DNA from: an uncultured Methanomassiliicoccales archaeon
GTDB taxonomy: Archaea > Thermoplasmatota > Thermoplasmata > RBG-16-68-12 > JAJISG01
Reading direction: 5' to 3'
Assembly (NCBI GenBank): GCA_964347325.1
Contig: CAYFYA010000010.1
Span: forward strand, 1,041-65,040
Length of the DNA: 64,000 nt
Positions 6,845 to 45,197 of the stretch are shown here, one piece after another. Position 1 is the stretch's first letter, and every line of letters begins with the position of its first letter. Below the pieces are notes generated by a model. The model worked only from the letters and a program-made list of their open reading frames with translations. It was not told the DNA's origin and did not search any database. The position numbers were made by a program, and so were the translations under genes.

Positions 6845-6952
6845 CGTCTCACGCGAAGACTGTCTTGGGAGGGGATGGGGGCCTATTACTCTTTCTTGGG
6901 ACGGTGACCTCGGCCGTGGGCGAGAGCGCACACCCGGAGAGTTGCCCGCAAG

Positions 6953-6962
6953 CTTTTATACG
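6953..6962 (+). promoter_or_regulatory. Candidate archaeal TATA box (cttttatacg) about 27 nt upstream of the serS ATG, implying a leaderless transcript
   Basis: An AT-rich octamer in otherwise GC-rich DNA at the canonical -26 distance from the start codon. Confidence 0.35.
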
Positions 6963-6984
6963 ATTCTGAAAGGTTGTCGAGAAG

Positions 6985-27176: not shown

Positions 27177-27186
27177 TTTTATATAG
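27177..27186 (+). promoter_or_regulatory. TATA box (ttttatatag) 22-31 nt upstream of the ATG at 27208, implying a leaderless mRNA
   Basis: Canonical AT-rich element with a G/C-rich BRE-like cacgcg immediately upstream. Confidence 0.5.
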
Positions 27187-27207
27187 GGCAGCAGAGCTGC
27201 CAATCTC

Positions 27208-27498
27208 ATGAAGCCCCTGACGGTCCAGTACGAGAAGCTCAAGAACTACGTGGACTCCTCCGGGATGTACCGCATGTACGAGGAGGGGGAGGAGGTCACC
27301 CTCGTCTTCGAGCCCACCTTCGTCGAAGCCACCTTTCACGGGACAGGGGCTAGAATCTTCATCGCTGGCATCCGCCAGGGCGACCTCGTGAACATCCAGC
27401 GCTTCGAGATCGAGGATGAGAGTGGTGAGCGTCGGGACCTGGACCTAGAGGCCGCGAGGGAGTCCCTGGCAGTCTGGCTGGAGACTGTGGAGGACTAG
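27208..27498 (+). CDS. Small acidic cytoplasmic protein (96 aa), hypothetical
   Basis: ORF immediately after a TATA box. Contains the retropepsin-like degenerate string FHGTGARIF. Confidence 0.4.
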   Translation: MKPLTVQYEKLKNYVDSSGMYRMYEEGEEVTLVFEPTFVEATFHGTGARIFIAGIRQGDLVNIQRFEIEDESGERRDLDLEAARESLAVWLETVED

Positions 27499-27570
27499 TT
27501 CTCTTCATTGCTGATAATCGGAGCGTCAAACCTTTAGAGCCTCCCCGCAAGCAGATGGGTTTGCGAGGAC

Positions 27571-29310
27571 ATGAGGCAGCCTTCTCCACTGGCAAAGCAC
27601 GGGCCCTTCGTCACCTTCATGGCGGCCCTAGCGGCTCTGAGCTACTACTTTCACCTCAACATCGACCTGGTCCTGCCCGCGCTTAACTCGGCCAGCATTC
27701 TGATGCAGTTGGCCCTAGGGGCCACGATCATCGCCGTCCTGCGCAACGTCGTAGGCATCAAGGCCTACGGGACCTTCGCCCCTGTCATCATCGCCCTCAG
27801 TTTCCTCTACACGGGCCTGCTCCTCGGTTTGCTCCTCTTCGCCATCGTTATGGTCATCATGATCCTCACCAGGGCGTCCTTCCAAGGTGAGCAGATCCAG
27901 CAGGCCCACCGGGCGGCCATCATGGTCTTCATGGTGGCCCTGACGGCAATCCTGTTCGCCGCCTTCGCCGCCCAGCTTGGACAACCGGAGATCGCCTTCC
28001 TCCTCCTGTTCCCCGTCGTGATAACAGCCTGGTTCGCGGACCGGTTCCTGGAGCACGTCGACCGCGTGGGCCTTGGACCGCCGACGAAGTCGATGTTGTG
28101 GACAGTCGTCCTGGTTGCGGCTGCCTACCTCGTCATGGTCCAGGAGCCCTTGGTGAACCTCCTCGTGAGGGAGCCCCTGACGTGGCCCGCCTTTGTGATC
28201 GTCCACTGGCTCCTGGGGACGAGGGTCAAGATCCGCGTCTCGGAGAAGATGAGGTTCGGTTCCCTGAAGAGGCTGGAGGACGTGATGCTTCAGGGGGGAG
28301 TCTCGCAGACAATCCTCACTATTAGGCGCAGGAACACCGACTACCTTGACAAGTACAACCCTGCGGAACTCATGACGGAGCTCAACAAGTCAAAGGCTAA
28401 GGCCCTCCTCCTGTCCAGCGGCATCCCGGTCCCCGACAACTACCTACTCGTATCGAAGCGGGAGGACCTGGCCGAGGCCATAGATGTCGCCATGAGAGCT
28501 CCTGGCTTTGTGCTCAAGCCCTCCGAAGGATTCGGTGGCGAGGGCATCATAGTCGTCCACCGCCGGGAGGGGGACGTCTTCGTCACCAGCGAGGGAAGGT
28601 TGAGGAGCGAGGATCTCATCCAGCACCTCACCAACATCCTCGATGGAGCCTACAACGATGGACGGCCCGACGAGGCTCTCGTCGAGGCCCTCGTGGAGAA
28701 CCATCCGGCCCTGAAGCCCATCGCCCCACGGGGAGTGCCCGACGTCCGTGTGATCTGCTTCCTAGGCTACCCGGTGATGGCGATGCTCCGCCTTCCCACC
28801 AGGCGCTCTGGTGGCAAGGCCAACCTGCACATGGGAGCCGTGGGTGCCGGCGTTGAGATCTCCACTGGCTCCATCAACTTCGCCACCTGGAAGGGGCAGC
28901 TGGTGCGGCGCCACCCGGACACGGGGAAGAAGCTCCTGGGATTCCAGGTGCCCTTCTGGGAGGACATCCTAGAGATAGCCTCCGAGGCACAGAGGATCTC
29001 AGGACTGGGCTTCGCGGGGGTGGACATCGTCTTCGACAACCTCAGGGGACCCCTGGTGCTCGAGGTCAACCGCCGACCTGGTCTGGAGATCCAGAAGGCC
29101 AACGGCACGGGGCTGCTCCCACGCTTGGAGGCGCTGAAGAGCCTCGGCGAGGTCCAGGAGCCCTCCGAGGTTAGGGTCCTAAGGGTCATGGAGATGGACC
29201 GACACGACTGGAAGCTACCGGTTCCCTCGGCCCACATCGAGCCGGAGTCTCCGGTGAGCGAGGAGGTGCCGCTGACCTCCTTGCCGCCCGAGAAGGGGGG
29301 TCCGAAGTGA
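27571..29310 (+). CDS. 7TM (inactive-transglutaminase-associated 7TM family) fused to a RimK-like ATP-grasp amidoligase
   Basis: N-terminal ~230 aa with 7 TM helices. C-terminal ATP-grasp core (VLKPSEGFGGEGIIVV, ...ANLHMGAVGAGVEI..., GFAGVDIVFD...LVLEVNRRPG). Confidence 0.75.
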   Translation: MRQPSPLAKHGPFVTFMAALAALSYYFHLNIDLVLPALNSASILMQLALGATIIAVLRNVVGIKAYGTFAPVIIALSFLYTGLLLGLLLFAIVMVIMILTRASFQGEQIQQAHRAAIMVFMVALTAILFAAFAAQLGQPEIAFLLLFPVVITAWFADRFLEHVDRVGLGPPTKSMLWTVVLVAAAYLVMVQEPLVNLLVREPLTWPAFVIVHWLLGTRVKIRVSEKMRFGSLKRLEDVMLQGGVSQTILTIRRRNTDYLDKYNPAELMTELNKSKAKALLLSSGIPVPDNYLLVSKREDLAEAIDVAMRAPGFVLKPSEGFGGEGIIVVHRREGDVFVTSEGRLRSEDLIQHLTNILDGAYNDGRPDEALVEALVENHPALKPIAPRGVPDVRVICFLGYPVMAMLRLPTRRSGGKANLHMGAVGAGVEISTGSINFATWKGQLVRRHPDTGKKLLGFQVPFWEDILEIASEAQRISGLGFAGVDIVFDNLRGPLVLEVNRRPGLEIQKANGTGLLPRLEALKSLGEVQEPSEVRVLRVMEMDRHDWKLPVPSAHIEPESPVSEEVPLTSLPPEKGGPK

Positions 29311-30422
29311 GCGAGGAGGAGAAAGCCAGGGAAGTGGTCAGACAGGTGCGGCGGGCTGGCATCCGCCAAGTCCTGGTTGTGGCGGGGGCCCTCTTCGCAG
29401 CGAGCTGTATCGTCATCTCTCTGGCCGCAGCAGGGGTGATGAGCCTGCCCCTGGAGGGCGTCCCCATAGAGGGTGATCCCTGGGTCCTCGAGTCCGTCCA
29501 GGCAGACCGCCTGCGAGCCAGGGGGTATGACGGTAGTGGTGTCACCGTCTGCCTTGTCGACTCTGGAATCGACCTGATACATCCCGACCTGGCTTCGATC
29601 CCCCTAGTGGCTTGGAGAGATTTCGTCGAGGGGGAGCCCTATCCCTACGATGACGGTGGTCACGGCACAGCTATGGCTGGCCTCATCGCCGCCCGCGGAA
29701 GGTTGAGTGGCATCGCCCCAGGTGTCTCCCTGATGGTTGTCAAGGCCCTGAGGTCCAACGGGACCGGCAGTTCGGACACCATCGGCAAGGCCATCAGGTT
29801 CTGCTCGGACCCCAACAGGGACGGGAATACCTCCGACGGGGCAGACATCATTAGCCTCTCCCTGGGCGCTCAGACCACTCCCCTCAGGACCAACTCGGCC
29901 GCCCTGGCAGCGGTGGAGGCCGTCGAGGCTGGCATCTTCGTAGTGTCTTCAGCGGGGAACGACGGTCGGGAGGACGATGGGGATGTAGGCACTCCGGCCG
30001 ACGAACCCCTCGTCATCGCCGTCGGCGCCTTGAACCGGAGAATGGAGATCGCGGCCTTCAGCTCGAAGGGGGAGAACGGCCTCCCTTCAAGTCCCTCCCG
30101 TACCGACCCCAACAGGAAACCCGAGTTCGTGGTTCCTGGGGTGGCCCTTCTGACGACGTCAAGGACCTCCTCCTACACAGTCATGACGGGAACGTCGGTT
30201 TCGGCGGCCCTTGTGTCTGGACTCCTGGCCCTCCTGCTGGAGGCCAATCCCGAGTACAGGAAGGGGAGTGAGGCGACGGTCGAGCAGGTCAAGCGTATGC
30301 TCATGGACACGGCCCTACCCCTGGAGGACCAGCAGACGCCTCACGATGACTGGTATGGGTATGGCCTTGTGCAGGTCTATCAGGTTTACCTGCGAATGTA
30401 CTCGACCCAGCCAGCGTCGTGA
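29307..30422 (+). CDS. Membrane-anchored subtilisin-like serine protease (S8)
   Basis: Catalytic triad contexts VCLVDSGID (Asp), GHGTAMAGLIAA (His), GTSVSAALVSG (Ser). N-terminal TM anchor. The start overlaps the stop of the upstream gene by 4 nt. Confidence 0.85.
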   Translation: MSEEEKAREVVRQVRRAGIRQVLVVAGALFAASCIVISLAAAGVMSLPLEGVPIEGDPWVLESVQADRLRARGYDGSGVTVCLVDSGIDLIHPDLASIPLVAWRDFVEGEPYPYDDGGHGTAMAGLIAARGRLSGIAPGVSLMVVKALRSNGTGSSDTIGKAIRFCSDPNRDGNTSDGADIISLSLGAQTTPLRTNSAALAAVEAVEAGIFVVSSAGNDGREDDGDVGTPADEPLVIAVGALNRRMEIAAFSSKGENGLPSSPSRTDPNRKPEFVVPGVALLTTSRTSSYTVMTGTSVSAALVSGLLALLLEANPEYRKGSEATVEQVKRMLMDTALPLEDQQTPHDDWYGYGLVQVYQVYLRMYSTQPAS

Positions 30423-30561
30423 CGTCACTGGGAAGAGTATCATTTCGGGGAAGGATAGAGCAAGCTTTTTGTAGCCAGCGAGGAGACGGACTCGTGGTGA
30501 TTACCTGGACATAGTTCAGGTCGCAGTCCTGCTCCTCGGGATTACCCTGGGCTGGCTGCTG

Positions 30562-30840
30562 ATGTTCGCCGTCCGGCGATACAGGGTCCAATGGGGAGCC
30601 TTCGCCAGCTTCATGACCGTCATCCTGGGCATCAGCATGGTCAAGTTCCTCTACGCCCAGGACCTGCTTCCCTATTACGCCATAGGTCTCTTCGTCGGCT
30701 TCTTTGCCAACGTAATCGTGAGGCTGGTGGGGAAGATCGTTGGCGGTCGTGTCGGCGATGGTCTGCTGGAGATCTCGGCGTACAAGGTGAGGGCAGAGAC
30801 GGGACCTGCAGAGCTGTCGGAGACTCGTCAGGAATCCTGA
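30562..30840 (+). CDS. Small membrane protein (2 TM), hypothetical
   Basis: Hydrophobic helices. A T5 tract (30466-30470) lies upstream, after the S8 gene. Confidence 0.3.
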   Translation: MFAVRRYRVQWGAFASFMTVILGISMVKFLYAQDLLPYYAIGLFVGFFANVIVRLVGKIVGGRVGDGLLEISAYKVRAETGPAELSETRQES

Positions 30841-30941
30841 GGGATACCAAAGGCCGACCGCTCTCTACGTGACTCCGTGCCGAGGGTGCAAAACCTACAG
30901 AAAACTAGAAGTGCCAACTCGCTTTAGTCGAATGCTACGAT

Positions 30942-33674
30942 ATGTCATTCTTCCGCTATGCCCTCCTGGACATAGTCCGAGGTCGTCGGCGGACCTTCTC
31001 AGCGATCCTAGGGATCGTCTTGGCCATCACCTTCCTTGCTGGGACCTATATCGCCATCGACTCCTCAACGCGGGCCACGCTGGAGGGAATGCTGGCCGGA
31101 GTCAACGGCGACTTCACGGTGGGGGCCAATCGTGGGAGCGCCAGTGACCTTCAGCAGATTCTGCAGGTTTATCCTGGCGTGGTCGACTCTGCGGTCTTCT
31201 ATCGGGGCTACGTTGGAGATCTGGGGACCGGTGGTGAGATCACTAGGGTCGGAGCTGAAACGACCTTCGTCGACCCCGAGAAGCTCCCTCGGATTTGGCG
31301 GGATGCGGAGGTTGTGGGCTCCTTGGAGTTGCCGAGAGGCACGGTCGCCCTGACGCAGTCACTAGCCAGTTTCCTCGACATCGGAATCGGAGAGAACGTC
31401 ACTCTGGTGAACTTCGCCTGGGACCCCGTCGATGAGGAGCCGGTCACTTACCAGCTGAACCTCACGGTTGAGGCCCTGGTTACGATGTCTAGGCCGTCCG
31501 AAGCAGCGCCCTTCGGACCCGTTTTCTGGTACGATGAGTGGGTGGTCCTGATGCATATCCGGGATGTGGAGTGGATCGGGGAGCAGCTGTCTCTATCCCC
31601 CGGCTACGCCAGATTGGCGGCAGAGGTTTGGGTAGATAGGGGCCGCTTCATCAACCCCTATGACATAGAGAGTTCGAGGCGCGAGCTGGCGCGGTTCGAG
31701 CGGGGTCTTGAACAGGCCCTGGTCTCCTTCAATGCTTCAGTCTCTGACAACGTCTCCTTCGCTTTGAGCCTCTACGAAACCCAGATCACTAGCCAGCGGG
31801 TAATCTACCTGATACTCTCCGCACCCGTTCTGCTCCTGGGCCTCTACCTCGGTGCAGTCGGCGTGGACCTGGGCCATGCTGAGCGGCGTCGGGAGCTCGC
31901 CGTCCTCAAAACCCGGGGCGCGGGGGGAGGCCAGGTCTTGGGCCTGCTGCTCCTGGGGGCGGTGCTGAGCGGGATCCTGGCCACAGCCATCGGCCTCGTT
32001 GCGGGTATTGGCCTGAGCCGTCTCCTCCTCACGGTGGTTAACCCCTTTGCCCTAGAGGTCGCCCCCGCCTACGACGTGATCGTCCTCTCCGTCGGGACAG
32101 TCATCACAGTGGCCGCCTTCAGCGTGGTCTTCATGCTCCTGGCAAGCTACCGCTCAGCCAAGCGGACGGCAAAGCTGCCTGTGGCGGAGACCCTTCGGTA
32201 CTACGCTCCCGGAGAGACGAAGATAGATTACAGACCCACAATCGACATCGTCCTGGTGAGCCTAGGCATCATCGCGCTCGCTGGGACCTGGTTCGTCCGC
32301 TTCAACCCGGATAACTTCGTCTCTTTCCTCGTGGGCATCATCTTCACGGTCCTCCTCCCCTTGGCCCCCGTCTTCCTCATCGTGGGCGCCACGCGCCTCC
32401 TAACTCGGAGCACCGGGCGCATCTACGGTTGGGCCGCGCGTCTCTGGAAGCCCATCGCCGGGGGCCTGCACTCCATCATCAACAAGAACCTCGCCAGGAA
32501 TCCCCGGCGCTCATCCAACGTGGCTGTCATCATCGCCCTGGGCCTCGCCTTCGGACTCTTCATCTTCGCCTTCCTGGGTTCGACCGTCGCCAACCAGCAG
32601 AGGACAATCAGAGCATCGATTGGCGCCGACATCAACGTTCGAACCGCTCCATTGGACGACGCTTCCTTCCTCCAGAACCTGAGCTCAGTGCCCCAGGTAT
32701 CTGGAATCTCTGTTGTAAGGGTGGTCTACGCGGAGGTCTACGGCAGAGGCGTGCAGACCTACGGAGTGGATCCGGACACGCTCTTTGCCGTGACTCAGCC
32801 GGAATCCTGGTACTTCGATGGGATGTCCGCCGAAGCTGCAGCCGACGCTATCCGGGGGGAGGATCAGGTTCTCACATCCAAGGCGATGGCGGACTCGCTC
32901 TTCCTGGAGGTCGGGGACAGAATCCCCATCACTCAGGAGTACTACAACGAGACCGCCGGGAGGCCGGAGGACGTCACCGTCAACGTCACTGTGGCGGGCA
33001 TCGTTCGTGCCCTTCCGGGCACCGTGGAATACACCTACACCGTCCCGTCTGCTCTATATGCGAGCCACGAGACCCTAGCGCCCTTCATTGAGAGGGAGGA
33101 TGGCTTCTTTGGGGAGGGACAAATCCTCGTGGACCTCCAGCCAGGGGCCGACTGGCGGGAGGCGAAGGGGGTCATCGTGGCTATGGGTGTGAGCTATGTC
33201 CAAGTCTACGAGGAAGAGCTGCTCCGCGCCACCTCGGATCCCTTCTACCGCTCCGTCCTCGGCTTCATCAGCATGGAGGTCGCCTTCATCGTGGCCATCC
33301 TGACAGCGGGGCTGGGCCTCATTCTCTTCGCCGCCACCCTGGAGCGTGACGTGGAGTTCGCAGCTATCCGGGCCCGAGGAGCTAGCGGCTGGCAGGCATC
33401 CGGCCTAATAACCGGCGAGGCCTCCTCCATCATGATCGTAGGGTTGGTGATTGGGACGGTGGTGGGCCTGGTTGTTGCCTACTTCATATTCCAAGTCTTC
33501 ATCATCTCCTTCGGGCCTCAGGAGCCCCTGGTGCCATTCCTCTTCGCCCTTCCCCTGGAGGGCGTTCTCTTGGTGGTCATAACACCCATTGCCATGCTCC
33601 TAACGGCTCTCCTCATAGCCTGGCGCGTGGCTCGCATGAACGTGGCGAGGGTGCTGAAGCTCCGAGGTGGTTGA
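30942..33674 (+). CDS. ABC transporter permease with two FtsX-like domains (MacB/LolE-type) and large extracytoplasmic loops
   Basis: 910 aa. Two 4-TM FtsX modules (GAG...LGL..G motifs), each preceded by a large periplasm-like domain. Overlaps the downstream ATPase gene by 8 nt. Confidence 0.85.
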   Translation: MSFFRYALLDIVRGRRRTFSAILGIVLAITFLAGTYIAIDSSTRATLEGMLAGVNGDFTVGANRGSASDLQQILQVYPGVVDSAVFYRGYVGDLGTGGEITRVGAETTFVDPEKLPRIWRDAEVVGSLELPRGTVALTQSLASFLDIGIGENVTLVNFAWDPVDEEPVTYQLNLTVEALVTMSRPSEAAPFGPVFWYDEWVVLMHIRDVEWIGEQLSLSPGYARLAAEVWVDRGRFINPYDIESSRRELARFERGLEQALVSFNASVSDNVSFALSLYETQITSQRVIYLILSAPVLLLGLYLGAVGVDLGHAERRRELAVLKTRGAGGGQVLGLLLLGAVLSGILATAIGLVAGIGLSRLLLTVVNPFALEVAPAYDVIVLSVGTVITVAAFSVVFMLLASYRSAKRTAKLPVAETLRYYAPGETKIDYRPTIDIVLVSLGIIALAGTWFVRFNPDNFVSFLVGIIFTVLLPLAPVFLIVGATRLLTRSTGRIYGWAARLWKPIAGGLHSIINKNLARNPRRSSNVAVIIALGLAFGLFIFAFLGSTVANQQRTIRASIGADINVRTAPLDDASFLQNLSSVPQVSGISVVRVVYAEVYGRGVQTYGVDPDTLFAVTQPESWYFDGMSAEAAADAIRGEDQVLTSKAMADSLFLEVGDRIPITQEYYNETAGRPEDVTVNVTVAGIVRALPGTVEYTYTVPSALYASHETLAPFIEREDGFFGEGQILVDLQPGADWREAKGVIVAMGVSYVQVYEEELLRATSDPFYRSVLGFISMEVAFIVAILTAGLGLILFAATLERDVEFAAIRARGASGWQASGLITGEASSIMIVGLVIGTVVGLVVAYFIFQVFIISFGPQEPLVPFLFALPLEGVLLVVITPIAMLLTALLIAWRVARMNVARVLKLRGG

Positions 33675-34362
33675 GTTGCCTCAGATAGTGACGAAGGATC
33701 TGATCAAGGTGTATCGGGCGGGCAGGTCGGAGGTCATAGCCCTCCGCGGCCTGGACATGCAGATGGTAGACGGGGAGTTGGTGGCCATCCAAGGCCCCTC
33801 CGGGTGCGGGAAGACGACGCTTCTGAATCTCATCGGGGGTATCGACCGCCCCACCGCGGGACGGGTAGAGGTCGATGGAACGAACATCGTGGACTACAGC
33901 GACGCCGAGCTGGTGCGATATCGCCGAGACCGAGTGGGGTTCGTCTTCCAGTTCTTTAACCTCGTTCCCACACTGACGGCCAGGGAGAACGTGGAGCTGC
34001 CACTGCGGTTGGCCAGCAAGCCCGCGACCCATCGGGACGGGCGGACGAAAGACCTCCTGAAGCTGGTGGGAATGGAGGATCGGGCGGTCCACAGGCCCGA
34101 CGAGCTGAGTGGCGGTGAGCAGCAGCGCATCGCCGTGGCAGTCGCCCTGGCCAACGATCCGGCCCTGGTTCTCGCTGATGAGCCTACGGGAGAGCTGGAC
34201 ACGGAGAACGGCCAGCGGGTCCTCGACCTGTTCGAGGTGTTGAACAGGGACCTGGGGAAGACGGTCCTCATCGTCACTCATGACCAGCGGGTTTCGAAGA
34301 TCGCCAGGCGTATCCTTAAGATCGAGGACGGGGCGATAGTCGGTGAGACAGTGCCCACCTAG
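33667..34362 (+). CDS. ABC transporter ATP-binding protein (MacB/LolD-like)
   Basis: Walker A GPSGCGKTT, signature LSGGEQQRIAVA, Walker B LVLADEPTGELD, H-loop VTHD. Confidence 0.9.
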   Translation: MVELPQIVTKDLIKVYRAGRSEVIALRGLDMQMVDGELVAIQGPSGCGKTTLLNLIGGIDRPTAGRVEVDGTNIVDYSDAELVRYRRDRVGFVFQFFNLVPTLTARENVELPLRLASKPATHRDGRTKDLLKLVGMEDRAVHRPDELSGGEQQRIAVAVALANDPALVLADEPTGELDTENGQRVLDLFEVLNRDLGKTVLIVTHDQRVSKIARRILKIEDGAIVGETVPT

Positions 34363-34389
34363 TCGCCCTGGACCGCCTGCGCCGAGCCC

Positions 34390-35352
34390 CTAATCCTCAG
34401 GCGGAGTCGTTCCTTCCTCGGCCTCCTCCCTCTCCTGTTCCTCTGGTGAACCTCTCCGCCTCCAACGTTCCTCCAATCGAGAGACGACTTCAGTTAGGCC
34501 TCCCTGGTCCTCTCCTTCAGAGGGCATCCGCCTCTGCTTCACCTTGATACGGAAGATGTCCCACGCCACTGGAATGCCAATCAGCAACAGAACTAGGACG
34601 CCAAGGGAGGTCCAACTATTGCCTGCGACCCGACCGTCCCCGATGGCGTAGGTGCCGGTGAGGACGAGCCTGAGCAGGCCCAACCAGGGAAGCTCCCCCC
34701 GGGCTCGCCCTAAGACCCAGCTGTGACGGACCAGGGGTCTGTCGTACTCGGGAGCGTTGTTATCTCCCATGGTGACGTAGCAGGGGTTCTCCTGCGTGCA
34801 CCTCGGGGAGACGACCTGTGAGGTGAAGGTGCTCATGAAGAACTCGATGGAGAGGTCCCTGAAGGTGGCGTTATGGATAAACACCTCGTCCGGCGATTGG
34901 AGGCCGAGAGGGGAGGATGCGCTCGCGTCCCAATCCACCCCCCGCTCCAAGTTGAGCAGCGAGGGGATGTCGAAGCCTGCCACGGAGTCGTTCCAGAGGA
35001 GACGGAACATCGGTCGGTGTATTATGAGCCGATTGTCCGTCAGCCTCCGGAAAAGAAGGACATCGCCGTAGTCGCCGAAGGTCGCGTAGCCCGTGGCTCT
35101 ACCCTCCACATAGGTGATGACTTCCTGCGGCGACGAGATGGCCTGCGGTATGATGACGTCACCGATATCTGCGACCCCGAAGGAGCTGGTCTGGTTGTTG
35201 TGCTGCATGCTCCCGCTCTCGATGACGACCAACGGTGGCCAGTTCCCAGAAAAGAGGAAGAGGCCGCCCAGGACGACGGCCGCCACGACGCCGATGAGCA
35301 GCAGGACATAGAAGAGCTTCATCAACGCAGGAGGAATCTCCGGGTCCATCTC
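34390..35352 (-). CDS. Signal peptidase I (archaeal/eukaryotic Sec11-type, S26B) with an extended C-terminal region
   Basis: TM anchor followed by VVIESGSMQ (catalytic Ser box), and DVLLFRR / GDNN-like regions. Start reassigned to the ATG at 35352 (MDPEIPP...). Confidence 0.6.
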   Translation of the reverse strand, partial: EMDPEIPPALMKLFYVLLLIGVVAAVVLGGLFLFSGNWPPLVVIESGSMQHNNQTSSFGVADIGDVIIPQAISSPQEVITYVEGRATGYATFGDYGDVLLFRRLTDNRLIIHRPMFRLLWNDSVAGFDIPSLLNLERGVDWDASASSPLGLQSPDEVFIHNATFRDLSIEFFMSTFTSQVVSPRCTQENPCYVTMGDNNAPEYDRPLVRHSWVLGRARGELPWLGLLRLVLTGTYAIGDGRVAGNSWTSLGVLVLLLIGIPVAWDIFRIKVKQRRMPSEGEDQGGLTEVVSRLEERWRRRGSPEEQEREEAEEGTTPPED

Positions 35353-35494
35353 CTCCTGACAACCAACGGGGTGAAGACATCTTAAGTCTTGCCAAACGAT
35401 GTCGGAATGGGCCGTCTGGCGTGGCCAGTTCACATTCATCCTACCCTCCCGAAAAGTGTTATAACCCGCCCATCCATCTTCGACTGGCGCCAGG

Positions 35495-36463
35495 ATGGAA
35501 GAGGTCTGGGTAGAGAAGTACCGACCCAAAGACCTGGGGGAGGTTGTCAACCAGGATCAGGTCGTGGCCCGCCTCAAGGCCTACGTGAAGACCGGAAACC
35601 TGCCCCACCTCCTCTTCGCTGGACCGGCTGGGACAGGAAAGACCACATGCGCCATTGCCCTGGCCCGGGAGCTCTTTGGGGACGACTGGCGGGGGAACTT
35701 CGGAGAAACCAACGCCTCGGATGCCAGAGGGATCGACGTCATTCGGACAACCATCAAAAACCAGGCCAGGATGGCGCCTATAGGAGCAGGTCGGTTCAAG
35801 ATCATCTTCCTGGACGAGGCCGACCACCTGACCAACGACGCCCAGGCAGCCCTCAGACGGACGATGGAGATGTACACTCGCACGGCCCGTTTCATCATCT
35901 CCGTCAACTACTCTAGCCGTATCATCCCGCCCATCCAGAGCCGTTGCGCGGTCTTCCGGTTCCGCCCCCTGAAGCCCGAGCACGTGCAGGAGTACGTCAA
36001 GCGGATAGCGAAGGCCGAGGGACTGAAGGTCAAGGACGACGGCATGGAGGCCCTAACGTACATCGCTCAGGGAGACCTGCGGAGGGCGACCAACTCCCTA
36101 CAGGTCGCGGCAGCCCTGTCCAAAACCATCGACTCCGACTCCCTGTACAGGGCGGCGGGGGCGGCGAGCCCGGAGAACGTACGCAGGCTGATAGAGACGG
36201 CCCTCAAGGGCGACTTCCTAGGAGCCCGAAACCAGCTGGACGACCTCCTAATAGAGTACGGCCTGGCGGCGGAGGACCTCCTGAGGGAGATCTACCGCGC
36301 CGTGTACGACCTCAGCGTCCCCGATGAGTTGAAGGTGGGGATGGTGGACCGCATCGGCGACGCTGATTTCAGGCTAATCCAGGGCAGCAACGACCGCATC
36401 CAGCTGGAGTCCCTCCTCTCCAGCTTCGCGCTGATGGGCAGGGGTTTGAAGGAGGAGGATTGA
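35495..36463 (+). CDS. rfcS: Replication factor C small subunit
   Basis: RFC box II VEKYRPKDL, Walker A GPAGTGKTT, DEAD-like FLDEADHLT, sensor SRC motif. 322 aa with no intein. A TATA-like gtgttataacc lies about 33 nt upstream. Confidence 0.95.
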   Translation: MEEVWVEKYRPKDLGEVVNQDQVVARLKAYVKTGNLPHLLFAGPAGTGKTTCAIALARELFGDDWRGNFGETNASDARGIDVIRTTIKNQARMAPIGAGRFKIIFLDEADHLTNDAQAALRRTMEMYTRTARFIISVNYSSRIIPPIQSRCAVFRFRPLKPEHVQEYVKRIAKAEGLKVKDDGMEALTYIAQGDLRRATNSLQVAAALSKTIDSDSLYRAAGAASPENVRRLIETALKGDFLGARNQLDDLLIEYGLAAEDLLREIYRAVYDLSVPDELKVGMVDRIGDADFRLIQGSNDRIQLESLLSSFALMGRGLKEED

Positions 36464-38684: not shown

Positions 38685-41600
38685 TCAGAGCCAGTCCTCT
38701 TCCTCAGGCACTTTCTCAGGCCCCTCGCCCGACGGGCGCCTCGGCCTAACGTACCGGAGGTAGAGATAGGCAGAGAGGCCTGCCAGGGCGGCTACAGCCG
38801 CTATGAGGGCAAGGGTCAGGGGCTGCGTCACCTGGTCCGTGATGGGCAGCGCCTGGGTCTTGACGATCACATCCACGTTGGCGCTCACGCCCCCATATGT
38901 CACGCTGATGGTGCCAGTCCCAGTCTCGCTCCCCGCCGTGAAGGTGGCAGACCAGCCCGCTTCGGTGGCCTCGATGGTTCCGATAGTGGTCGTCCAGTCG
39001 AAGGTGGCATCTGCTATCTGGTTCCCGTGCTGATCCTTCGCCACGGCTATCAGGTCGGCACTTCCGCCGGTCAACACCTCCAGCGTGCTCGGGCTCACCG
39101 TGATCTCGTCCACGGGGCCGGGGACTATCCTGACGACGGCAGTGGCATTCATGTCGTCCAAGGCCACTCTCACCGTCCCGGTCCCGGTGATGGTCGAGGC
39201 TGTGAAGAGGCCCGTGGCGTCGATGGTCCCTATGCCACCGGTCGCAATCCAGTCGAAAGAACCACCGTTGACAGGGTTCCCGAACTGGTCCTGAGTCGTG
39301 GCGGTGAACTGGAGGGTATCGCCAGCCTCAACGTCGACGACTCCGGGGGCAATGGTCACCTGCTCGGGAGGACCCGGCATGACGTTCACCGTCACGTTGT
39401 CCACGAAGGTAGAGAGGCGCACCTCGAGGCTGTCCGTACCGGCCGTGGGACCAGCCAAGTAGATGATCTCGTCCCCGGAGGACGTGAGCGGGATGACGGT
39501 CCCCAGGCCATTCATGGAGGTCCACGTGAAGGTACCTCCGACGGAGTTGTTGTACGCGTCGAAGCCCACGGCGTCGAACTGGGTCGCGCCGCCCACGACG
39601 ACGTCGGCCGAGTCGGGGGACGTATCCACCCTGTCGGGGACGCCGGCTCCGACGAAGCTGAAGCCGGTAACCTTCCCGGCCTCGTCACCGACCACCAGGT
39701 ATCCGTCTCCCAGGGCGACGGAGGATGTGCTACCGGCGCTAGACAGCAGGATTGTCTGGAGGGTGGCCCCGGTAAGGGCATCCCAGACCCGCAGATTACC
39801 GTCCCAGGCTGTAAGGAACACGGATCCGTTGTTGTAGCCCACCGAGCTACCCACGGCCGCTCCGCTCAGGAAGTTGGACCAGGCCGGCGTGCCGTTGGTG
39901 GCGTGGAGGGCGTGAATCCAGCCGTTGGCTACGGCGAAGTCGAAGGTCCCGACGAAGACCATCCCGTCGGCCACCGCGGGGGAGGAGACGTCAATCAAGG
40001 CGCCCAGTCCGCTGGAGGTCCAGATGGGCGCTCCCGTGAGGGCCTCGAAGGCGTAGAGGGAACCGCCGTAATCACCGACGTAGAGGACCCCATCGACCAC
40101 CGTGGGTGCTGAGGTGACGATGGCCGCTACGGTCGTCGTCCAGATGGGCGTCCCATCGAAGGCGTCCAGGGCCACGATTCGGCCGGAGGTGTCCGCGGCG
40201 AAAACCATGCCCGCGGCGTAGGTTGGTCCCTGAAGGGTGCTCGACCCCATGGAGTAGGACCACTGGACCACGCCAGTGGTGACGTCGCTGGCTAAGATCG
40301 TCCCGACGTAGTCGGACCAGTAGACGTGCCCCACCGCCACTGCGGGGGTCGAGAAGGTCGCCGGGGCGAAGCCTGTGAAGGAGTCGGTTTGCCAGTTGGT
40401 GGTGCCTGTTGCCGCGTCGAGGGAGAACAACGAGATCCTGGTGTTCCCGCTGGTCACGAAGGTGACGTAAACACTACCGTCGGCAGCAGCGGGTGTTCCA
40501 GCGATGTTTCCGATGTCGCCCAACGTGCGCTGCCACTTCACCTCGCCGGTGCCGACATCGACGGCGTTGAGGACTCCCTCCTGCTCCGCGAAGTAGACCA
40601 TATGATCATAGATGATGGGTCCACTCCAGCGGATCGGTAGGCCTCCGACGCCCGCGACCCAACGCTGAGTCAGCGGCATCTCGAAGGGCACGGGAGCCAC
40701 GCCGCTCCTCTCCCGGTCGTGGTGGAACTGCGGCCACTCTGGTGAGGGTAGCGGCAACACCTCCAGTCTCAGCAAGGCCGTATCATCCTCCCCCGGGTCG
40801 GCCGCGGAAACGGCCCTCACGATCAGTGTATCCAAAGTGTCTAGGGGGGCGTCCGATGGCACTTCCACCCTCACTACGATGGGGCTATCCTGCAGTCCTG
40901 GCACCAATCCAGTGTCGGGAGTGCCGTCGCTATCGGTATCTGTCAACGGCGTGACCCCGTCGGAGTCCAGCAGGGTGACTGTCCAGCCCATTGTTGAGGT
41001 GCCGGTGACCTGGAACAAGTCCTCCAGTCCCCCCGTGTTGGTTATGTTGACGTTGAAGCTCACGGAGGCTCCCGGTTCGCTGCTGCTGTAGACGTCTGGA
41101 CCCGCGGCGACACCTGGCAAGGGGACCAGGGTCGTTATTGAAGCCTGGGCAACGGCGCTCGGGTCCCCCACGGACGTGATGTTCAAGGTGAGGAGGTCGG
41201 CCTGACCGGCAGTCGCTCCCGCATCTACGTCGACGCGGACGATGATGTCTAGAGACGCCCCCGACGGGATGGGTCCCGTGTCCACGAAGGTGTCGTTGTT
41301 TGTGTCATTCAGGGGGGTCACGCCGTCCGCGTGGTAGAAGGTCCTCGTCCACCCATAGGGGACGCCGACTCCCGCAACGTTGAAGGTGTCTTCTGCCAGG
41401 AAGGCGCCACGGTTCCTGACCTCCAGGCTATACTCCGCCGTCCCACCGGGAACGGCGACCCCAGTCACGCTCGATGGTGTGATGCTCGCGCCGAACTCGG
41501 GAGGCATGATCCATTCCAGAAGCCTATCCATCAGCAGCTCCCGGTCGGCAGCGGTGCTGACGCCCTCGTAGTTGAAGGCCAGGTAGGCGATTGCGTAGGC

Positions 41601-44600
41601 GCCGTCCTCCACCCGCAGTATGGCCGACTGGGAAGATGGGCCCGATGCGTACTGGGCGCTGGTAACGGCGGGTGAGATGGGGTCCACTACGCTGGGCCAT
41701 ATGTTGTTGTTGGCCCCGTCACCTCCGTTGATGAGGATGTTTAGGCCATCGCCGATGGGATCGCTCGACACACCGATCACGTTGTCGGTGGGAGCATTGT
41801 CGCTAACGTAGATCGCGTGGAGGTAGTCGGAGTAGAAGCTGCTTCCGGACCAGTAGAAGCCGATGTCCTGGCCCGAGAGGATGAGGCGTCCTCCCGCATC
41901 AAGGAACTGGGCGACCTCGGCCTGAGCCGACGGGTTAAACCCGTTTGAGGGCGTGTGCCAGATGAGTAGGTCGAAGCCTTGAAGGTCTGCCAGGACGGGG
42001 TTCCCCTGGGCAGCCACCTCCCAGTAATCGAAGGGTTGGGCAAGGGCGCTCAGGGCACTCACGTAGTAGCTTTCGTAGGAGTTCCCGAAGTCGTCATCCA
42101 CCAAGAGTATCGGTGGTACGTCCAGCGTCGTGAAGCTGTAGTACGAAGAGGCGTTGTCGTCCACCGCCGTGTTGCCGGCTGTGTCCGTGGACTCGACCTC
42201 GAAGAAGTAGGTCGTGTTGGGCTGCAGCATCGTAAGGTTCACGCTATGGGACGACGTGAACCCATCAATGGTCACGAGATCGGGCGGCGTCGTGGTGTTG
42301 TAGCGGACGACGCTCGTGGCACTCTCATCTGTGAGCCAGGTGATGCGGGCGGAGTTGTGGGTTATGTCCGTCGCCTGCACATTTGACACTAATGGGGGAT
42401 CGTCGTCGATGGTTGCGGTGTCGTTCACCGTGGCTGGCGGGCTGGCGTCGACGTAGGTGACGTTTATGGTCCCGCCGTTCACCACGGTGAGGTTACCGTC
42501 GTCCGGTGCGGATGGGGTCAGGGTTAGCTGGATGGTACCGCTGAAGACGCCGGAGTCGGTACCGACCTCTAGGAGGGTCACGCTCTCACTGTCTGTCAGA
42601 CTGCTGACCGCGGTTACCAGGGCGCTGTCTTGGGTGAGGTTGTCCAGGTCGAGGTCGATGTCTGCCAGGAAGATGTCCGCTGAGGCGCTGGACCTGTAGA
42701 GCGGCTTGCTCCACGACACGTCCCCGTCCGAGGTTGGACTGCCCCCATGGGAAATCACAATGGCGTAGTCCTGGGTGGGACTACCGGGAACATTAACGGC
42801 GGTGACATTGACTGTGTAGACCCCAAGCCGTAGCTCGGAGGTTGGGATGTAGACGTTCTCCAGGTTGTTCAGCGGGTCTCCCGAGCCACCAGGCACGCTC
42901 CACCCGTTGCTGAAGTGGTTGCCGTAGTAGGTGGTCCCGTCTGGCGCCGTCACCACAAGGTCCAGGTCATTCACAAGCACGGGCGAGCTGCCCGGCATCC
43001 CAGGTACATCGGTCCACGCCAGGGAGACCTTGAAGGGCTTGTCCATCCTGGCGACAGGAATGGAGTAGGTGAAGGTGGTGCCCGTGTCTAGGGCCTGCTG
43101 CTGGTCCTCGTAGAAGACAGCACCGGTGAAGTTCAGGAGGTTCTCCAGGTTCACGCGCCCCCAGCCTTCGTCGAAGTTGGGGATAGGACCTGTGGAATCG
43201 GATCCAAGACTTGGACTAGCCACCGGCGGCATGTCCACGGCACCGTTTACTAGGGCCGCTTTAGTCAGGGCCGGACTCGGGTCGACGGCGAAGACGTTCC
43301 TGTAGTACTCCACGAAGAGGGCCGCACTCCCGGAGACGATTGGACCCGACATGCTTGTCCCGCCGCAGTACTCGTGGTACGAGTCGATGTTCTGCCAGCA
43401 CCAGCCGGGTGAGGATTGGCTGGAGAGCAGTGAGGCGATCCACGTTCCCGGGGCAACGATCTCGGGCTTGATTCGCCCGTCGGTAGTCGGACCTCGGCTG
43501 CTGAACCCAACCATGGCGTCGATGTTGTCAGCGGGCCACTGCCCCATTATTGGAACCGTTGGCCTGTAGTTCAGGGATGCGCCCGTAGCGATGACGTTCT
43601 TCGCGTTGGCAGGGCTTCCCGTGGTCGAAGGGCCAGGACCATCGTTGGCGGCAGAGAACTCGAAGATGATGGGTTGATCTCCACCCGCGACGTTGTCGGC
43701 GTCCCTAACCAGCTCGTCGAAGATCGCGTCGTCAGCGATATAATCGCCCAGGGTGAAGATCCGCCAGCTGTTGCTGTGGATTATGGTACCATTGCCAACG
43801 GCATCACGGCCCATCTGGTAATAGTCTGGGAAGACCCAGAAGCCGGAGTCATCGAAGATCCGCTGGTTCACTATGAGGGCCTCGGGGGCCATGCCGAGGC
43901 CGTAGGAGAAGCCGTCACCGTCCGTCAGGCCCGTAGCGTTGTCGCCCGCGATTATGCCTGCAACGTGTGTGCCGTGGCCCACCCTGTCCTCGGCCGAGAT
44001 GAGGCTGCCGTAAGGGATGTGTGCCACGGTCCTGTTGTCGAGCTCTGGGTGCATGTCTCCACCCACTCCGGGGTCGTCCGCGCCGGTGTCCACTCCGGTG
44101 TCCGCCACCGCCACGGTGACGTTCTGGCCAGACAGTCCTAAGGAGGCGAGCCAGTCAATGTAACCAGGGGTGATGGGGGAGTAGTGGCCCGCCGCGATCT
44201 GTCCCGCCACCTCGTCCACCAGCTCAGGTCGCAGGAAGGGCTCGATCCAGTACACCCCAGGCAGGTTGGCCAGCTCGGGGAGGTTGGCCGCATCTGTGGA
44301 GAACCGAACCAGCTTGAGGCCGCCGACAGTCATGGTCTGGTAGTGGAGGATGACCATTCCCTCGAGGGCCTCCCAGGTCCGCGGGGGTGCCGACGCCTGG
44401 ACCAGTACGGTGAAGTCCCTAGATCCTGCAGAGGAGATCGACGGGAACCCGCCGGAGAGGGGCTGCCCCGAGTCAGGCAGGGCTGTGAAGCCGGGGAAGC
44501 TCAAACGGGACGGCCCTAGGGCCACGTCTCGGTGCTTGGGCACCTGCACATCAAGAGATGCTACGCTGCCGAATTCCTGGTACACCAGCCGGCTTATTCG

Positions 44601-45197
44601 ATAGGCGGGATGGTAGATCCCAACCCACTGGATGAAGGGAGCCATGCCAGTCGCTCGAACGGTGGAGGGATCCATCTCCACGATGAAAGCAAAGTTGGGG
44701 ATGTAGTTGTAGAAACGGACACCCTGGGCTTCGAGGGCTTCGACCCACTCGGCCTTGACGGGCCCTACGAACTGTACGATGTGAAGCCCCGGCTCACCCA
44801 CTTCATAGGAGTCGATGTGCAGGTTCGGAGCGATCTCTGGTTCGCCCGCCGCAGTATCGAAGGTAACTCCGCCCAAGGAGATGGTCGTCCTGTCGACAAG
44901 CAGGCGAACGACCAGATTCCTGGCCTGAAGAGTCAGCGCGGTGGAGGGAGGCACGGAAGCCAAAACGAAACCGCCATAGTCCACAACTGGCTCCACGCCC
45001 GCCCGGCTAAGAGCGGCACGCTCCTCCGGTGAGGAACTGCGGAGCAGGACATCGAAGCCCGTGCCGAGCTCGCCACGCTTCAGAGCTGGCTGTGGTTCCG
45101 CCGCCACGGGGGACAGAACGCCAAGGAAGGTCGTCACCACCATCAATGTGGCTAAAATCAGAGACACGATACGGAGAGAACCGCATTCTGAGGACAT
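38685..45197 (-). CDS. Giant (2170 aa) cell-surface subtilisin (S8) with Ig/FN3-like domains, a PQQ-repeat beta-propeller and a C-terminal TM anchor
   Basis: Signal peptide. S8 triad VAVADTGVD / GHGTHVAGIIAG / GGTSMSGP (roughly nt 43250-44230). PQQ-like repeats (VYFAEQEGVLNAVDVGTGEVKWQ, LYVGDYGGSLYAFEALTGAPIWT; roughly nt 39650-40730). C-terminal TM plus an RYVRPRR tail. Many sequons. Confidence 0.85.
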   Translation of the reverse strand: MSSECGSLRIVSLILATLMVVTTFLGVLSPVAAEPQPALKRGELGTGFDVLLRSSSPEERAALSRAGVEPVVDYGGFVLASVPPSTALTLQARNLVVRLLVDRTTISLGGVTFDTAAGEPEIAPNLHIDSYEVGEPGLHIVQFVGPVKAEWVEALEAQGVRFYNYIPNFAFIVEMDPSTVRATGMAPFIQWVGIYHPAYRISRLVYQEFGSVASLDVQVPKHRDVALGPSRLSFPGFTALPDSGQPLSGGFPSISSAGSRDFTVLVQASAPPRTWEALEGMVILHYQTMTVGGLKLVRFSTDAANLPELANLPGVYWIEPFLRPELVDEVAGQIAAGHYSPITPGYIDWLASLGLSGQNVTVAVADTGVDTGADDPGVGGDMHPELDNRTVAHIPYGSLISAEDRVGHGTHVAGIIAGDNATGLTDGDGFSYGLGMAPEALIVNQRIFDDSGFWVFPDYYQMGRDAVGNGTIIHSNSWRIFTLGDYIADDAIFDELVRDADNVAGGDQPIIFEFSAANDGPGPSTTGSPANAKNVIATGASLNYRPTVPIMGQWPADNIDAMVGFSSRGPTTDGRIKPEIVAPGTWIASLLSSQSSPGWCWQNIDSYHEYCGGTSMSGPIVSGSAALFVEYYRNVFAVDPSPALTKAALVNGAVDMPPVASPSLGSDSTGPIPNFDEGWGRVNLENLLNFTGAVFYEDQQQALDTGTTFTYSIPVARMDKPFKVSLAWTDVPGMPGSSPVLVNDLDLVVTAPDGTTYYGNHFSNGWSVPGGSGDPLNNLENVYIPTSELRLGVYTVNVTAVNVPGSPTQDYAIVISHGGSPTSDGDVSWSKPLYRSSASADIFLADIDLDLDNLTQDSALVTAVSSLTDSESVTLLEVGTDSGVFSGTIQLTLTPSAPDDGNLTVVNGGTINVTYVDASPPATVNDTATIDDDPPLVSNVQATDITHNSARITWLTDESATSVVRYNTTTPPDLVTIDGFTSSHSVNLTMLQPNTTYFFEVESTDTAGNTAVDDNASSYYSFTTLDVPPILLVDDDFGNSYESYYVSALSALAQPFDYWEVAAQGNPVLADLQGFDLLIWHTPSNGFNPSAQAEVAQFLDAGGRLILSGQDIGFYWSGSSFYSDYLHAIYVSDNAPTDNVIGVSSDPIGDGLNILINGGDGANNNIWPSVVDPISPAVTSAQYASGPSSQSAILRVEDGAYAIAYLAFNYEGVSTAADRELLMDRLLEWIMPPEFGASITPSSVTGVAVPGGTAEYSLEVRNRGAFLAEDTFNVAGVGVPYGWTRTFYHADGVTPLNDTNNDTFVDTGPIPSGASLDIIVRVDVDAGATAGQADLLTLNITSVGDPSAVAQASITTLVPLPGVAAGPDVYSSSEPGASVSFNVNITNTGGLEDLFQVTGTSTMGWTVTLLDSDGVTPLTDTDSDGTPDTGLVPGLQDSPIVVRVEVPSDAPLDTLDTLIVRAVSAADPGEDDTALLRLEVLPLPSPEWPQFHHDRERSGVAPVPFEMPLTQRWVAGVGGLPIRWSGPIIYDHMVYFAEQEGVLNAVDVGTGEVKWQRTLGDIGNIAGTPAAADGSVYVTFVTSGNTRISLFSLDAATGTTNWQTDSFTGFAPATFSTPAVAVGHVYWSDYVGTILASDVTTGVVQWSYSMGSSTLQGPTYAAGMVFAADTSGRIVALDAFDGTPIWTTTVAAIVTSAPTVVDGVLYVGDYGGSLYAFEALTGAPIWTSSGLGALIDVSSPAVADGMVFVGTFDFAVANGWIHALHATNGTPAWSNFLSGAAVGSSVGYNNGSVFLTAWDGNLRVWDALTGATLQTILLSSAGSTSSVALGDGYLVVGDEAGKVTGFSFVGAGVPDRVDTSPDSADVVVGGATQFDAVGFDAYNNSVGGTFTWTSMNGLGTVIPLTSSGDEIIYLAGPTAGTDSLEVRLSTFVDNVTVNVMPGPPEQVTIAPGVVDVEAGDTLQFTATTQDQFGNPVNGGSFDWIATGGIGTIDATGLFTASTITGTGTVRVALDDMNATAVVRIVPGPVDEITVSPSTLEVLTGGSADLIAVAKDQHGNQIADATFDWTTTIGTIEATEAGWSATFTAGSETGTGTISVTYGGVSANVDVIVKTQALPITDQVTQPLTLALIAAVAALAGLSAYLYLRYVRPRRPSGEGPEKVPEEEDWL

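Follow-up and report, generated by a model that had tools for sequence, protein, structure and literature searches.

Which of the genes around a membrane-bound amide ligase of an uncultured archaeon form a system with it, and on what kind of product might that system act? The question is raised by a stretch of 64,000 nucleotides from an uncultured Methanomassiliicoccales archaeon (contig CAYFYA010000010.1, positions 1,041 to 65,040; hereafter called the window), whose region at 27.1-35.6 kb encodes a fusion of a seven-transmembrane (7TM) domain with an ATP-grasp ligase domain, followed at once by a membrane-anchored subtilisin of family S8. A preliminary description of this locus had read seven consecutive genes, beginning with a small acidic protein and ending with a signal peptidase, as one module for the ligation, proteolytic maturation, and export of a peptide. 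All of the open reading frames (ORFs) named in it were recovered at their places. The comparison of related loci reported here shows that the ligase and the subtilisin (27571-30422) are a real, conserved unit of two genes, and, judged from domain homology, this unit looks like an archaeal variant of the bacterial Rlo system in which a different protease is used. Those relatives of the window proteins that carry names come from Thermoplasmata or Methanomassiliicoccales metagenome-assembled genomes (MAGs), and a tRNA scan found no tRNA genes in the window. The features of the two-gene unit are as follows.

27571-29310, plus strand: 7TM-ATP-grasp fusion protein, 579 aa (ORF; PF14402 and PF14397)
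27571..28293, plus strand: 7TM module (aa 1-241), with about seven long helices (hydropathy; AlphaFold2 model with pLDDT 85.9 and pTM 0.79)
28327..29136, plus strand: ATP-grasp ligase domain (aa 253-522; PF14397)
29307-30422, plus strand: membrane-anchored S8 subtilisin, 371 aa (PF00082)
29370..29426, plus strand: transmembrane anchor of the subtilisin (aa 22-40), its sole strongly hydrophobic helix (hydropathy)
29559..30197, plus strand: catalytic span of the subtilisin, with D85 at 29559-61, H119 at 29661-63, N218 at 29958-60, and S297 at 30195-97
29958-29987, plus strand: family-specific acidic loop N-D-G-x-x-D-D-G-D-V of the subtilisin (aa 218-227)
30466-30470, plus strand: run of five T (T5), 44 nt past the stop codon of the subtilisin gene

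Conservation of the ligase-subtilisin pair

Loci around homologues were taken from assemblies and from GTDB species representatives, and homologues of every window gene were located in them by tblastn. In every sampled relative whose ligase is at least 42% identical to that of the window, the S8 gene directly adjoins the ligase gene, in one of three arrangements, and the other neighbors differ completely.

Co-directional, overlapping or 1 nt apart: L001, L007, and L088 (ligase identity 63-67%)
Convergent, with gaps of roughly 5-70 nt: L003, L008, L009, L089, and L090 (ligase identity 44-48%)
Fused into one ORF of 912-989 aa: L005/L006 and L010, and the proteins P0075, P0079, P0080, P0083, and P0084 (ligase identity about 42-46%)

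The identities of the ligases and of the subtilisins to the window proteins track together (r = 0.98 over eight loci), and the size of the longest contig is equal for at least 20 of the best S8 matches and ligase matches. S8 genes are few in any one genome, so that the probability of meeting the two genes side by side by chance in ten unrelated contexts should be negligible. The earlier proposal that a subtilisin takes the place of the aspartic protease known from the bacterial cassette is therefore upheld by the adjacency in all of these relatives and by the fusion in one clade, and of the synteny expected for the ligase, the part concerning the subtilisin was found conserved while the linkage to an ABC exporter was not. 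In the window, the stop codon of the ligase gene and the start codon of the S8 gene overlap as GTGA (GTG 29307-29309, TGA 29308-29310) and not as ATGA, as had been read before; by coordinates, the 4-nt overlap recurs in L001 and L007. The T-tract reported after the subtilisin gene is also present, and the T5 run at 30466-30470 is, from its sequence and position, a plausible archaeal terminator closing the two-gene unit.

The fused proteins are informative about topology. One of them, P0081, is present both in an NCBI assembly and in an independent Logan assembly and is therefore no frameshift artifact. All of the triple fusions, consisting of 7TM, ATP-grasp, and S8 domains, keep one hydrophobic helix between ATP-grasp and S8, for example at aa 597-615 of P0081 and aa 610-628 of P0075, and this linker helix is the counterpart of the anchor near the N terminus of the S8 protein where that is encoded separately. 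Because the ligase needs ATP, it has to be cytoplasmic, and with one helix between the two domains, the predicted topology is that of a ligase inside and an S8 catalytic domain outside the cell. The predicted structure of the 7TM module fits an orientation with the N terminus out and the C terminus in.

Domain architecture and predicted active sites

The 579-aa protein matches 7TM_transglut (PF14402) at aa 37-232 with 74.3 bits (E 1.4e-20, model 52-247 of 248; gathering threshold 25) and ATPgrasp_ST (PF14397) at aa 253-522 with 231.7 bits (E 1.3e-68, model 1-276 of 278; gathering threshold 31.4), which confirms the fusion of a 7TM domain with a RimK-like ATP-grasp domain described for 27571..29310 and places the 7TM region in the transglutaminase-associated 7TM family. 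The best NCBIfam model for the ligase is TIGR02291 (alpha-L-glutamate ligase-like, RloC-type) with 287.4 bits against a cut-off of 314.2, and the next-best, the RimK family model TIGR00768, reaches 51.8 bits against a cut-off of 143.4. Models of other ligase clades also score below their cut-offs, with 39.4 against 350 for MptN (NF040720), 27.4 against 331 for the Escherichia coli-type RimK (NF007764), and 23.4 against 275.6 for LysX, and no CofF model matched the ligase in the NCBIfam scan at E 0.01 or better. The ligase thus lies outside the RimK, CofF, and MptN clades, membership in which would have spoken against the preliminary description. The 7TM-ATP-grasp fusion alone is not unusual; the candidates scored include 1769 homologues of the 579-aa protein, and among the best 120 of these 1769, nearly all full-length proteins carry both domains.

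Residues K316, E372, D391, R393, D485, E498, N500, and R502 of the ligase domain are invariant in an alignment of 16 divergent homologues, and the domain is predicted to be catalytically intact and cytoplasmic. The nearest solved structure to it is RimK (5zct, 4iwx), at only E 1e-6. The invariant residues of the 7TM module are G62, G67, F69, G82, G86, P148, P202, R222, R228, and F229, of which R222 and R228 belong to a strongly basic amphipathic segment that links the 7TM module to the ligase in the AlphaFold2 model. No convincing relative of the 7TM model was found among solved structures.

The second protein of the pair is recognized as a Peptidase_S8 (PF00082; 169 bits, E 1.8e-49), and among solved structures Tk-SP, a protease of Thermococcus, is closest to it (3afg, E 4e-39). 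In an alignment with subtilisin DY and subtilisin Carlsberg, D85, H119, N218, and S297 correspond to D32, H64, N155, and S221 of subtilisin, and these catalytic D, H, N, and S residues are 100% conserved in 115 S8 family members, from which the protease is judged to be intact and active. An N-terminal anchor helix, which in the window protein is the one at aa 22-40, is found in 97 of 109 S8 family members, and the protein carries no I9 propeptide. The Pfam match, the helix, and the intact D85/H119/S297 triad together agree with the membrane-anchored subtilisin of the preliminary description. The acidic loop that begins with N218 is family-specific; its residues D223, D224, G225, and D226 are 87-98% conserved in the 115 family members, and Carlsberg has S-G-N-S-G-S-Q-N-T-I in its place. 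The loop would either bind calcium or determine a specificity for basic P1 residues. The position equivalent to G166 of subtilisin BPN' is Glu in 57% of the S8 family and Gly in the window protein.

A second, unrelated S8 subtilase exists in the window, in a giant surface-type ORF of 2170 aa (38685-45197, minus strand). Its S8 domain (aa 357-680) is 28% identical to the S8 protein of the cassette, and the ORF also holds an fn3/purple-acid-phosphatase-N domain and PQQ-like beta-propeller repeats.

Relation to the Rlo system and proposed mechanism

The bacterial cassette of a 7TM-transglutaminase-like protein, an ATP-grasp ligase, and an aspartic protease, to which the preliminary description had compared this locus, is now known as RloABC, and the kinship is supported by the 287-bit match to TIGR02291 and by an identity of 43% over 292 aa between the window ligase and Aeromonas RloC; the window 7TM is 28% identical to the 7TM of RloB. 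In Pseudomonas aeruginosa, PA14_41710 is rloB and PA14_41730 is rloC (Lormand et al. 2025, PMC11957051 / PMC12239564). The secreted RloA retropepsins cleave polyglutamate in vitro and are jointly needed for hypo-osmotic survival; a triple rloA protease mutant dies in hypo-osmotic medium, and this lethality is suppressed when rloB or rloC is deleted as well (PMC11957051). The cassette also affects the formation of biofilms by Pseudomonas, and the regulator of cell-wall stress in Vibrio induces it strongly (PMC11957051). In our genome scan, the homologous gammaproteobacterial region consists of a "Zn_protease" (PF05618), in fact a retropepsin whose N terminus is signal- or lipoprotein-like, a 512-aa protein with PF14400 and PF14402, and a 321-aa ATP-grasp protein.

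The archaeal pair resembles RloABC in that its ligase appears to belong to the RloC family, the C-terminal half of RloB (PF14402) is the homologue of its 7TM module, the order of 7TM and then ligase is collinear with rloB-rloC, and in both systems a membrane module and a cytoplasmic ligase are paired with an extracytoplasmic protease. The differences are nevertheless considerable. The 7TM and the ligase form one polypeptide in the window, whereas rloB and rloC encode them separately, and the periplasmic inactive-transglutaminase domain (PF14400) of RloB is absent from the window protein. No transglutaminase homologue was found anywhere in the window, the match to NF052267 (54 bits, cut-off 900) covering only the 7TM part (model 306-504). 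The protease of the window is a membrane-anchored S8 enzyme with a putatively acidic S1 region, while that of the Rlo system is a secreted retropepsin (PF05618) with a basic channel, and Aeromonas RloA gave no tblastn match in the window. Finally, the host is an archaeon, which has neither an outer membrane nor peptidoglycan.

On the model of the Rlo system, a mechanism can be proposed in three steps. The cytoplasmic ligase would use ATP to build or extend an amide-linked product, which by homology may be an alpha-linked amino-acid oligomer or tail. The attached 7TM module would then pass or present this product to the outer face of the membrane, where the tethered subtilisin would cleave it, so that the product is trimmed, released, or removed. 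We therefore favor, with a probability of roughly 0.55, the reading that the ligase, the 7TM module, and the subtilisin, much as RloBC and RloA do in Pseudomonas, act on a single product that is directed to the envelope. Homology, intact active sites, conserved pairing and fusion, and the inside/outside topology constitute its foundation, on which translocation by the 7TM module, the identity of the product, and the target of the protease can be proposed. The rescue of rloA loss by deletion of rloB or rloC fits a protease that removes the product of the ligase and the 7TM module. No small ORF was found to be conserved across the loci, which argues against a ribosomal precursor peptide.

Several points weigh against this reading. 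Several independent triple fusions had been expected, and this expectation was not borne out by a search of the full library, in which clustering at 50% left only one other full-length triple-fusion representative; the triple fusions thus most likely trace to one event and not to many, judging from these sequences, and have to be counted as a single Rosetta-stone event. Relatives whose ligases fall below about 41% identity lack the S8 protein and have other partners, which are a transglutaminase-like protein with Ser in place of Cys or a DUF1508 protein. If the acidic loop of the S8 protein lines S1 and does not bind calcium, it would favor a basic P1 residue and disfavor cleavage of polyglutamate as by RloA, in which case either the product or the bond cut by the protease may not be the same in archaea as in bacteria. 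Moreover, we know of no product or substrate assigned to any member of the family, whether bacterial or archaeal.

The same observations can be arranged differently, with the 7TM module acting as a sensor that switches the cytoplasmic ligase, a cytoplasmic protein as the target of ligation, as S6 is for RimK, and the protease making or destroying the signal or regulating the 7TM protein. The 7TM model, with no convincing solved relative, and the varied ectodomains of ligand-binding type that are fused to the 7TM-ligase core would be compatible with such a sensor. However, the epistasis in bacteria, where strains without the secreted proteases are rescued by the loss of rloB or rloC, is more simply explained by removal of a product, no cytoplasmic target gene is conserved nearby, and a substrate shared by ligase and protease would account at least equally well for their strict pairing and fusion, so that we consider a signaling role unlikely.

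MprF and the aminoacyl-phosphatidylglycerol hydrolases exemplify a membrane synthase/flippase with an adjacent secreted hydrolase. By analogy, the ligase might amidate the head group of a lipid or glycan in the inner leaflet, the 7TM module might flip it, and the hydrolase outside might remove the modification. The architecture of the cassette would parallel that of the MprF type, and the Pfam label of the ligase family is "sugar-transfer associated." The bacterial phenotypes also concern the envelope: in Pseudomonas, the Rlo cassette has effects on osmotic tolerance, on the sensitivity to beta-lactams, and on the shape of the cells (PMC11957051), and a Shewanella RloB mutant overproduces vesicles (PMC12096838). 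On the other hand, no genes for lipid or glycan biosynthesis are conserved beside the archaeal pair, subtilisins cut peptide bonds, and the substrates that RloA cuts in vitro are polyglutamate peptides. Modification of a head group is thus improbable in our estimation, and a shared product cleaved outside the cell by the subtilisin remains the explanation that we prefer. That the pair, which in one clade is a single polypeptide of about 950 aa, is even a self-contained machine that synthesizes, translocates, and cleaves its product without Sec or an ABC transporter is an extension of this explanation that we put forward only tentatively.

Neighboring genes of the pair

The remaining genes of the block lie between a gene for an NcsA/TtuA-type tRNA-thiolation enzyme on the minus strand, which forms the upstream flank, and the gene for the RFC small subunit, and are as follows.

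27177-27185, plus strand: TATA element TTTTATATA, about 27 nt before the ATG of w96 at 27208
27208-27498, plus strand: w96, an acidic protein of 96 aa (ORF)
30562-30840, plus strand: w92, a membrane protein of 92 aa (ORF)
30942-33674, plus strand: duplicated FtsX permease of 910 aa with two large loops (PF02687 twice; hydropathy)
33667-34362, plus strand: LolD/MacB-like ABC ATPase (NCBIfam models)
34390-35550, minus strand: convergent signal-peptidase-like ORF of 386 aa (weak match to TIGR02228; boxes read directly)
35495-36463, plus strand: RFC small subunit, downstream flank (domain models)

The window and its three close relatives share a backbone composed of PurA, two membrane proteins, NcsA, and RFC, on which the genes in question are distributed as follows.

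Window: w96, present; ligase and S8, present; w92, present; FtsX/ABC/signal peptidase, present
L001 and L088: w96, present; ligase and S8, present; w92, present; FtsX/ABC/signal peptidase, absent
L087: w96, present; ligase and S8, absent; w92, present; FtsX/ABC/signal peptidase, present

In L087, the homologues of w96 and w92 are 96 nt apart, and no remnant of a ligase or S8 gene was detectable. Because the gene contents of L087 and of L001/L088 separate the two sets, the ligase-S8 pair and the FtsX-ABC-peptidase block are independent insertion/deletion modules in one variable stretch. The view that w96, the ligase, the subtilisin, w92, the FtsX/ABC exporter, and signal peptidase I compose a single ligation-maturation-export module could draw on the contiguity of all these genes in the window, on the fact that most of them encode envelope proteins, and on the position of w96, which lies 67-72 nt upstream of the ligase gene in the window, L001, and L088. 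It does not withstand the double dissociation on the shared PurA-NcsA-RFC backbone. In addition, a T5 run separates the S8 gene from the genes downstream, and in the more distant loci neither w96 nor w92, and neither FtsX nor the signal peptidase, has a homologue near the pair, the only ABC ATPase matches there being 7-9 kb away. A joint system of that extent is very improbable, and cutting the scope from seven genes to two avoids a misleading annotation as an "export system."

The w96 gene deserves separate comment. The TATA element that had been proposed ahead of it is present. Among 5.8 billion proteins, the w96 family is represented by no more than 11 clusters, whose members are at least 66% identical and without exception belong to the narrow lineage of the window; w96 persists in L087 with no adjoining ligase or S8 gene, and it is absent beside the pair in L007 and beyond. 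In the predicted structure (pLDDT 79), w96 is an alpha+beta protein with helices at residues 8-18 and 80-95, and the string FHGTGA, on which its interpretation as a retropepsin-like remnant had been built, falls in the sole low-confidence loop. The all-beta fold of retropepsins is not seen in this prediction, so that the interpretation was rejected and FHGTGA is regarded as a chance string. As far as its distribution indicates, w96 is a narrow orphan and no general partner of the ligase-S8 pair. It is conceivable that w96 is a lineage-specific substrate whose C terminus is extended by the ligase as S6 is extended by RimK, or else a degenerate retropepsin, and its position directly upstream in the window, L001, and L088 and its acidic C terminus (...WLETVED), which is almost invariant across the 11 family members, might be cited for the former. 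Nothing beyond position speaks for w96 as a substrate, however, and its retention in L087, where the pair is missing, together with its absence beside the pair in L007 and beyond, makes the idea hardly credible.

As for the other neighbors, the double FtsX permease and its ATPase were correctly identified as exporter genes, with PF02687 found twice in the former and the latter resembling LolD (223 bits) and MacB (204 bits); both scores are below the equivalog cut-offs, so that membership is generic. In L087 (9984-13152), the FtsX homologue is broken up into three frames and the ABC ATPase into two pieces, which represents either a decaying transporter or an assembly error of the MAG. The signal-peptidase-like ORF matches TIGR02228 weakly (23.6 bits, E 3.9e-5; cut-off 51.85), and its translation contains SGSM, IIHR, and GDNN boxes. 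The ORF at 34390-35550 on the minus strand is probably a Sec11-type peptidase with an insertion, the score being below threshold because of a large insertion between the SGSM and GDNN boxes. In its longest form, the ORF overlaps the start of the RFC gene on the opposite strand by 56 nt, and translation probably begins at a Met farther downstream (MDPEIPP...).

The frame of w92 is open from 30475 and encodes a hydrophobic stretch, VQVAVLLLGITLGWLL, ahead of the ATG at 30562, with no ATG, GTG, or TTG in it; the relatives of w92 are called at 103-117 aa, as against 92 aa in the window. The start of w92 is thus probably upstream of the ATG at 30562, which would suggest a non-canonical start codon or a lineage-specific truncation. 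A protein of about 315-328 aa with a serine-protease-like NAL1_N domain overlaps the end of the w92 homologue in L001 (13247-14194), L087 (8701-9645), and L088 (11619-12605). The window lacks this gene and has FtsX next after w92, and L001 holds further genes at that place. In L088, toxin-antitoxin genes (VapB-like, HicA, and HicB-like) lie between NcsA and w96 (6188-7693). The NcsA-w96 stretch of the chromosome is a hotspot for small insertions.

Other partners and relatives of the 7TM-ligase core

Other fusions of 7TM and ATP-grasp domains, both bacterial and archaeal, have the core of 7TM and ATPgrasp_ST in common with the window protein and differ from it in the extracytoplasmic partner. 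The core is also found fused with an N-terminal Transglut_core domain, a prenyltransferase-type toroid, or TPR repeats, and the S8 partner occurs only in a clade centered on Thermoplasmata. The loci L011 (1868-2971), L013 (8005-9096), and L014 (10482-11564) belong to MAGs of "Thaumarchaeota," Thermoplasmatales, and Micrarchaeota. In them, the end of the 7TM-ligase gene overlaps the start of a gene for a protein of about 360 aa that has membrane helices at both ends and a Transglut_core domain with Ser in place of the catalytic Cys (G-[DG]-S-A-E). A gene of its own therefore encodes there what is the "inactive transglutaminase" part of RloB. L013 and L014 also encode a prenyltransferase-type toroid protein of about 920 aa upstream. 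In Haloarcula japonica (L012 11686-12438), the 7TM-ligase gene overlaps one for a 250-aa membrane protein with two DUF1508 domains, and an 80-aa homologue of the N terminus of this DUF1508 protein is encoded in a MAG (L091 7680-7922); no protease was found near the 7TM-ligase gene in L012 or L091.

In the subclade in which the S8 gene is convergent or fused, a protein of about 180 aa with a membrane helix at each end is encoded directly upstream of the 7TM-ligase gene (L005 1911-2435; L006 3101-3694; L008 79-630; L009 9398-9952; L090 5440-5991; L089 about 5495-5974). These proteins are 43-71% identical to one another, and the one in L089 is the C terminus of a 1945-aa PKD protein. The protein matches no Pfam family and does not occur in the window; in that subclade, the system may include it as a third component.

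Many apparent gammaproteobacterial fusions of the 7TM and the ligase were rejected as artifacts of tblastn, which reads on from rloB into rloC because the two genes are in the same frame and only one stop codon and one further codon separate them (L039 9074-11581 and other gammaproteobacterial loci from L017 to L086). The spacing is a trap for automated detection of fusions and raises the question of stop-codon read-through. Real bacterial 7TM-ligase fusions do exist, such as P0273.

Other known systems offer more distant parallels. RimK and RimB, the poly-alpha-glutamate ligase of S6 and its retropepsin, likewise combine an ATP-grasp alpha-amino-acid ligase with a dedicated protease, to which it is sometimes fused, and a natural RimB-RimK protease-ligase hybrid (PMC11957791) provides a precedent for fusions of ligase and protease. 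RimK and RimB are, however, soluble cytoplasmic proteins, RimK has no membrane module, and the similarity of the window ligase to RimK is only local (E 1e-6; TIGR00768 at 52 bits with a cut-off of 143). The mycosin model TIGR03921 is the best NCBIfam model for the S8 protein, which scores 132.1 bits with it, far below the cut-off of 278.75. Mycosins, too, are membrane-tethered S8 proteases without a classical I9 propeptide that are dedicated to one envelope machine, but their anchor is C-terminal and that of the window protein is N-terminal; no type VII secretion genes were seen in the neighborhood. PgsBCA with CapD/PgdS is a poly-gamma-glutamate synthase that is not homologous to the window cassette. 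As an analogy, it would resemble the proposed system in being a membrane-coupled, ATP-dependent amide ligase that exports a poly-amino acid beside an extracytoplasmic enzyme for cleavage or anchoring, but PgsB is of the Mur-ligase type and not an ATP-grasp enzyme, the membrane subunits are unrelated, and the linkage is gamma and not alpha.

Implications

The family and the bacterial cassette are already known and partly characterized, and the archaeal subtilisin variant appears to be the new part. No account of the archaeal form was found in the searchable literature, outside which lies the work of Iyer et al. 2009, who reportedly defined these domains, and searches by family name and by Pfam/TIGRFAM entry returned nothing relevant besides the 2025 Rlo paper and the Shewanella vesicle screen. 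The hosts that carry the S8 protein are uncultured, yet the variant still constrains what the Rlo system may do. The protease partner can be swapped for one of an unrelated fold, which means that what counts is peptidase activity outside the cell rather than the retropepsin itself. From the fusion proteins, the topology is fixed as ligase inside, one helix, and protease outside. An archaeal system with no peptidoglycan, no outer membrane, and no transglutaminase-like domain argues against models in which the murein sacculus is the target. The pair also points to an uncharacterized function of the envelope that many Thermoplasmata and related uncultured archaea have in common. If it should prove to be a self-contained machine for synthesis, translocation, and cleavage, it would represent a new route to a non-ribosomal peptide or poly-amino-acid component of the archaeal surface and would open a direct way to what the bacterial Rlo system produces.

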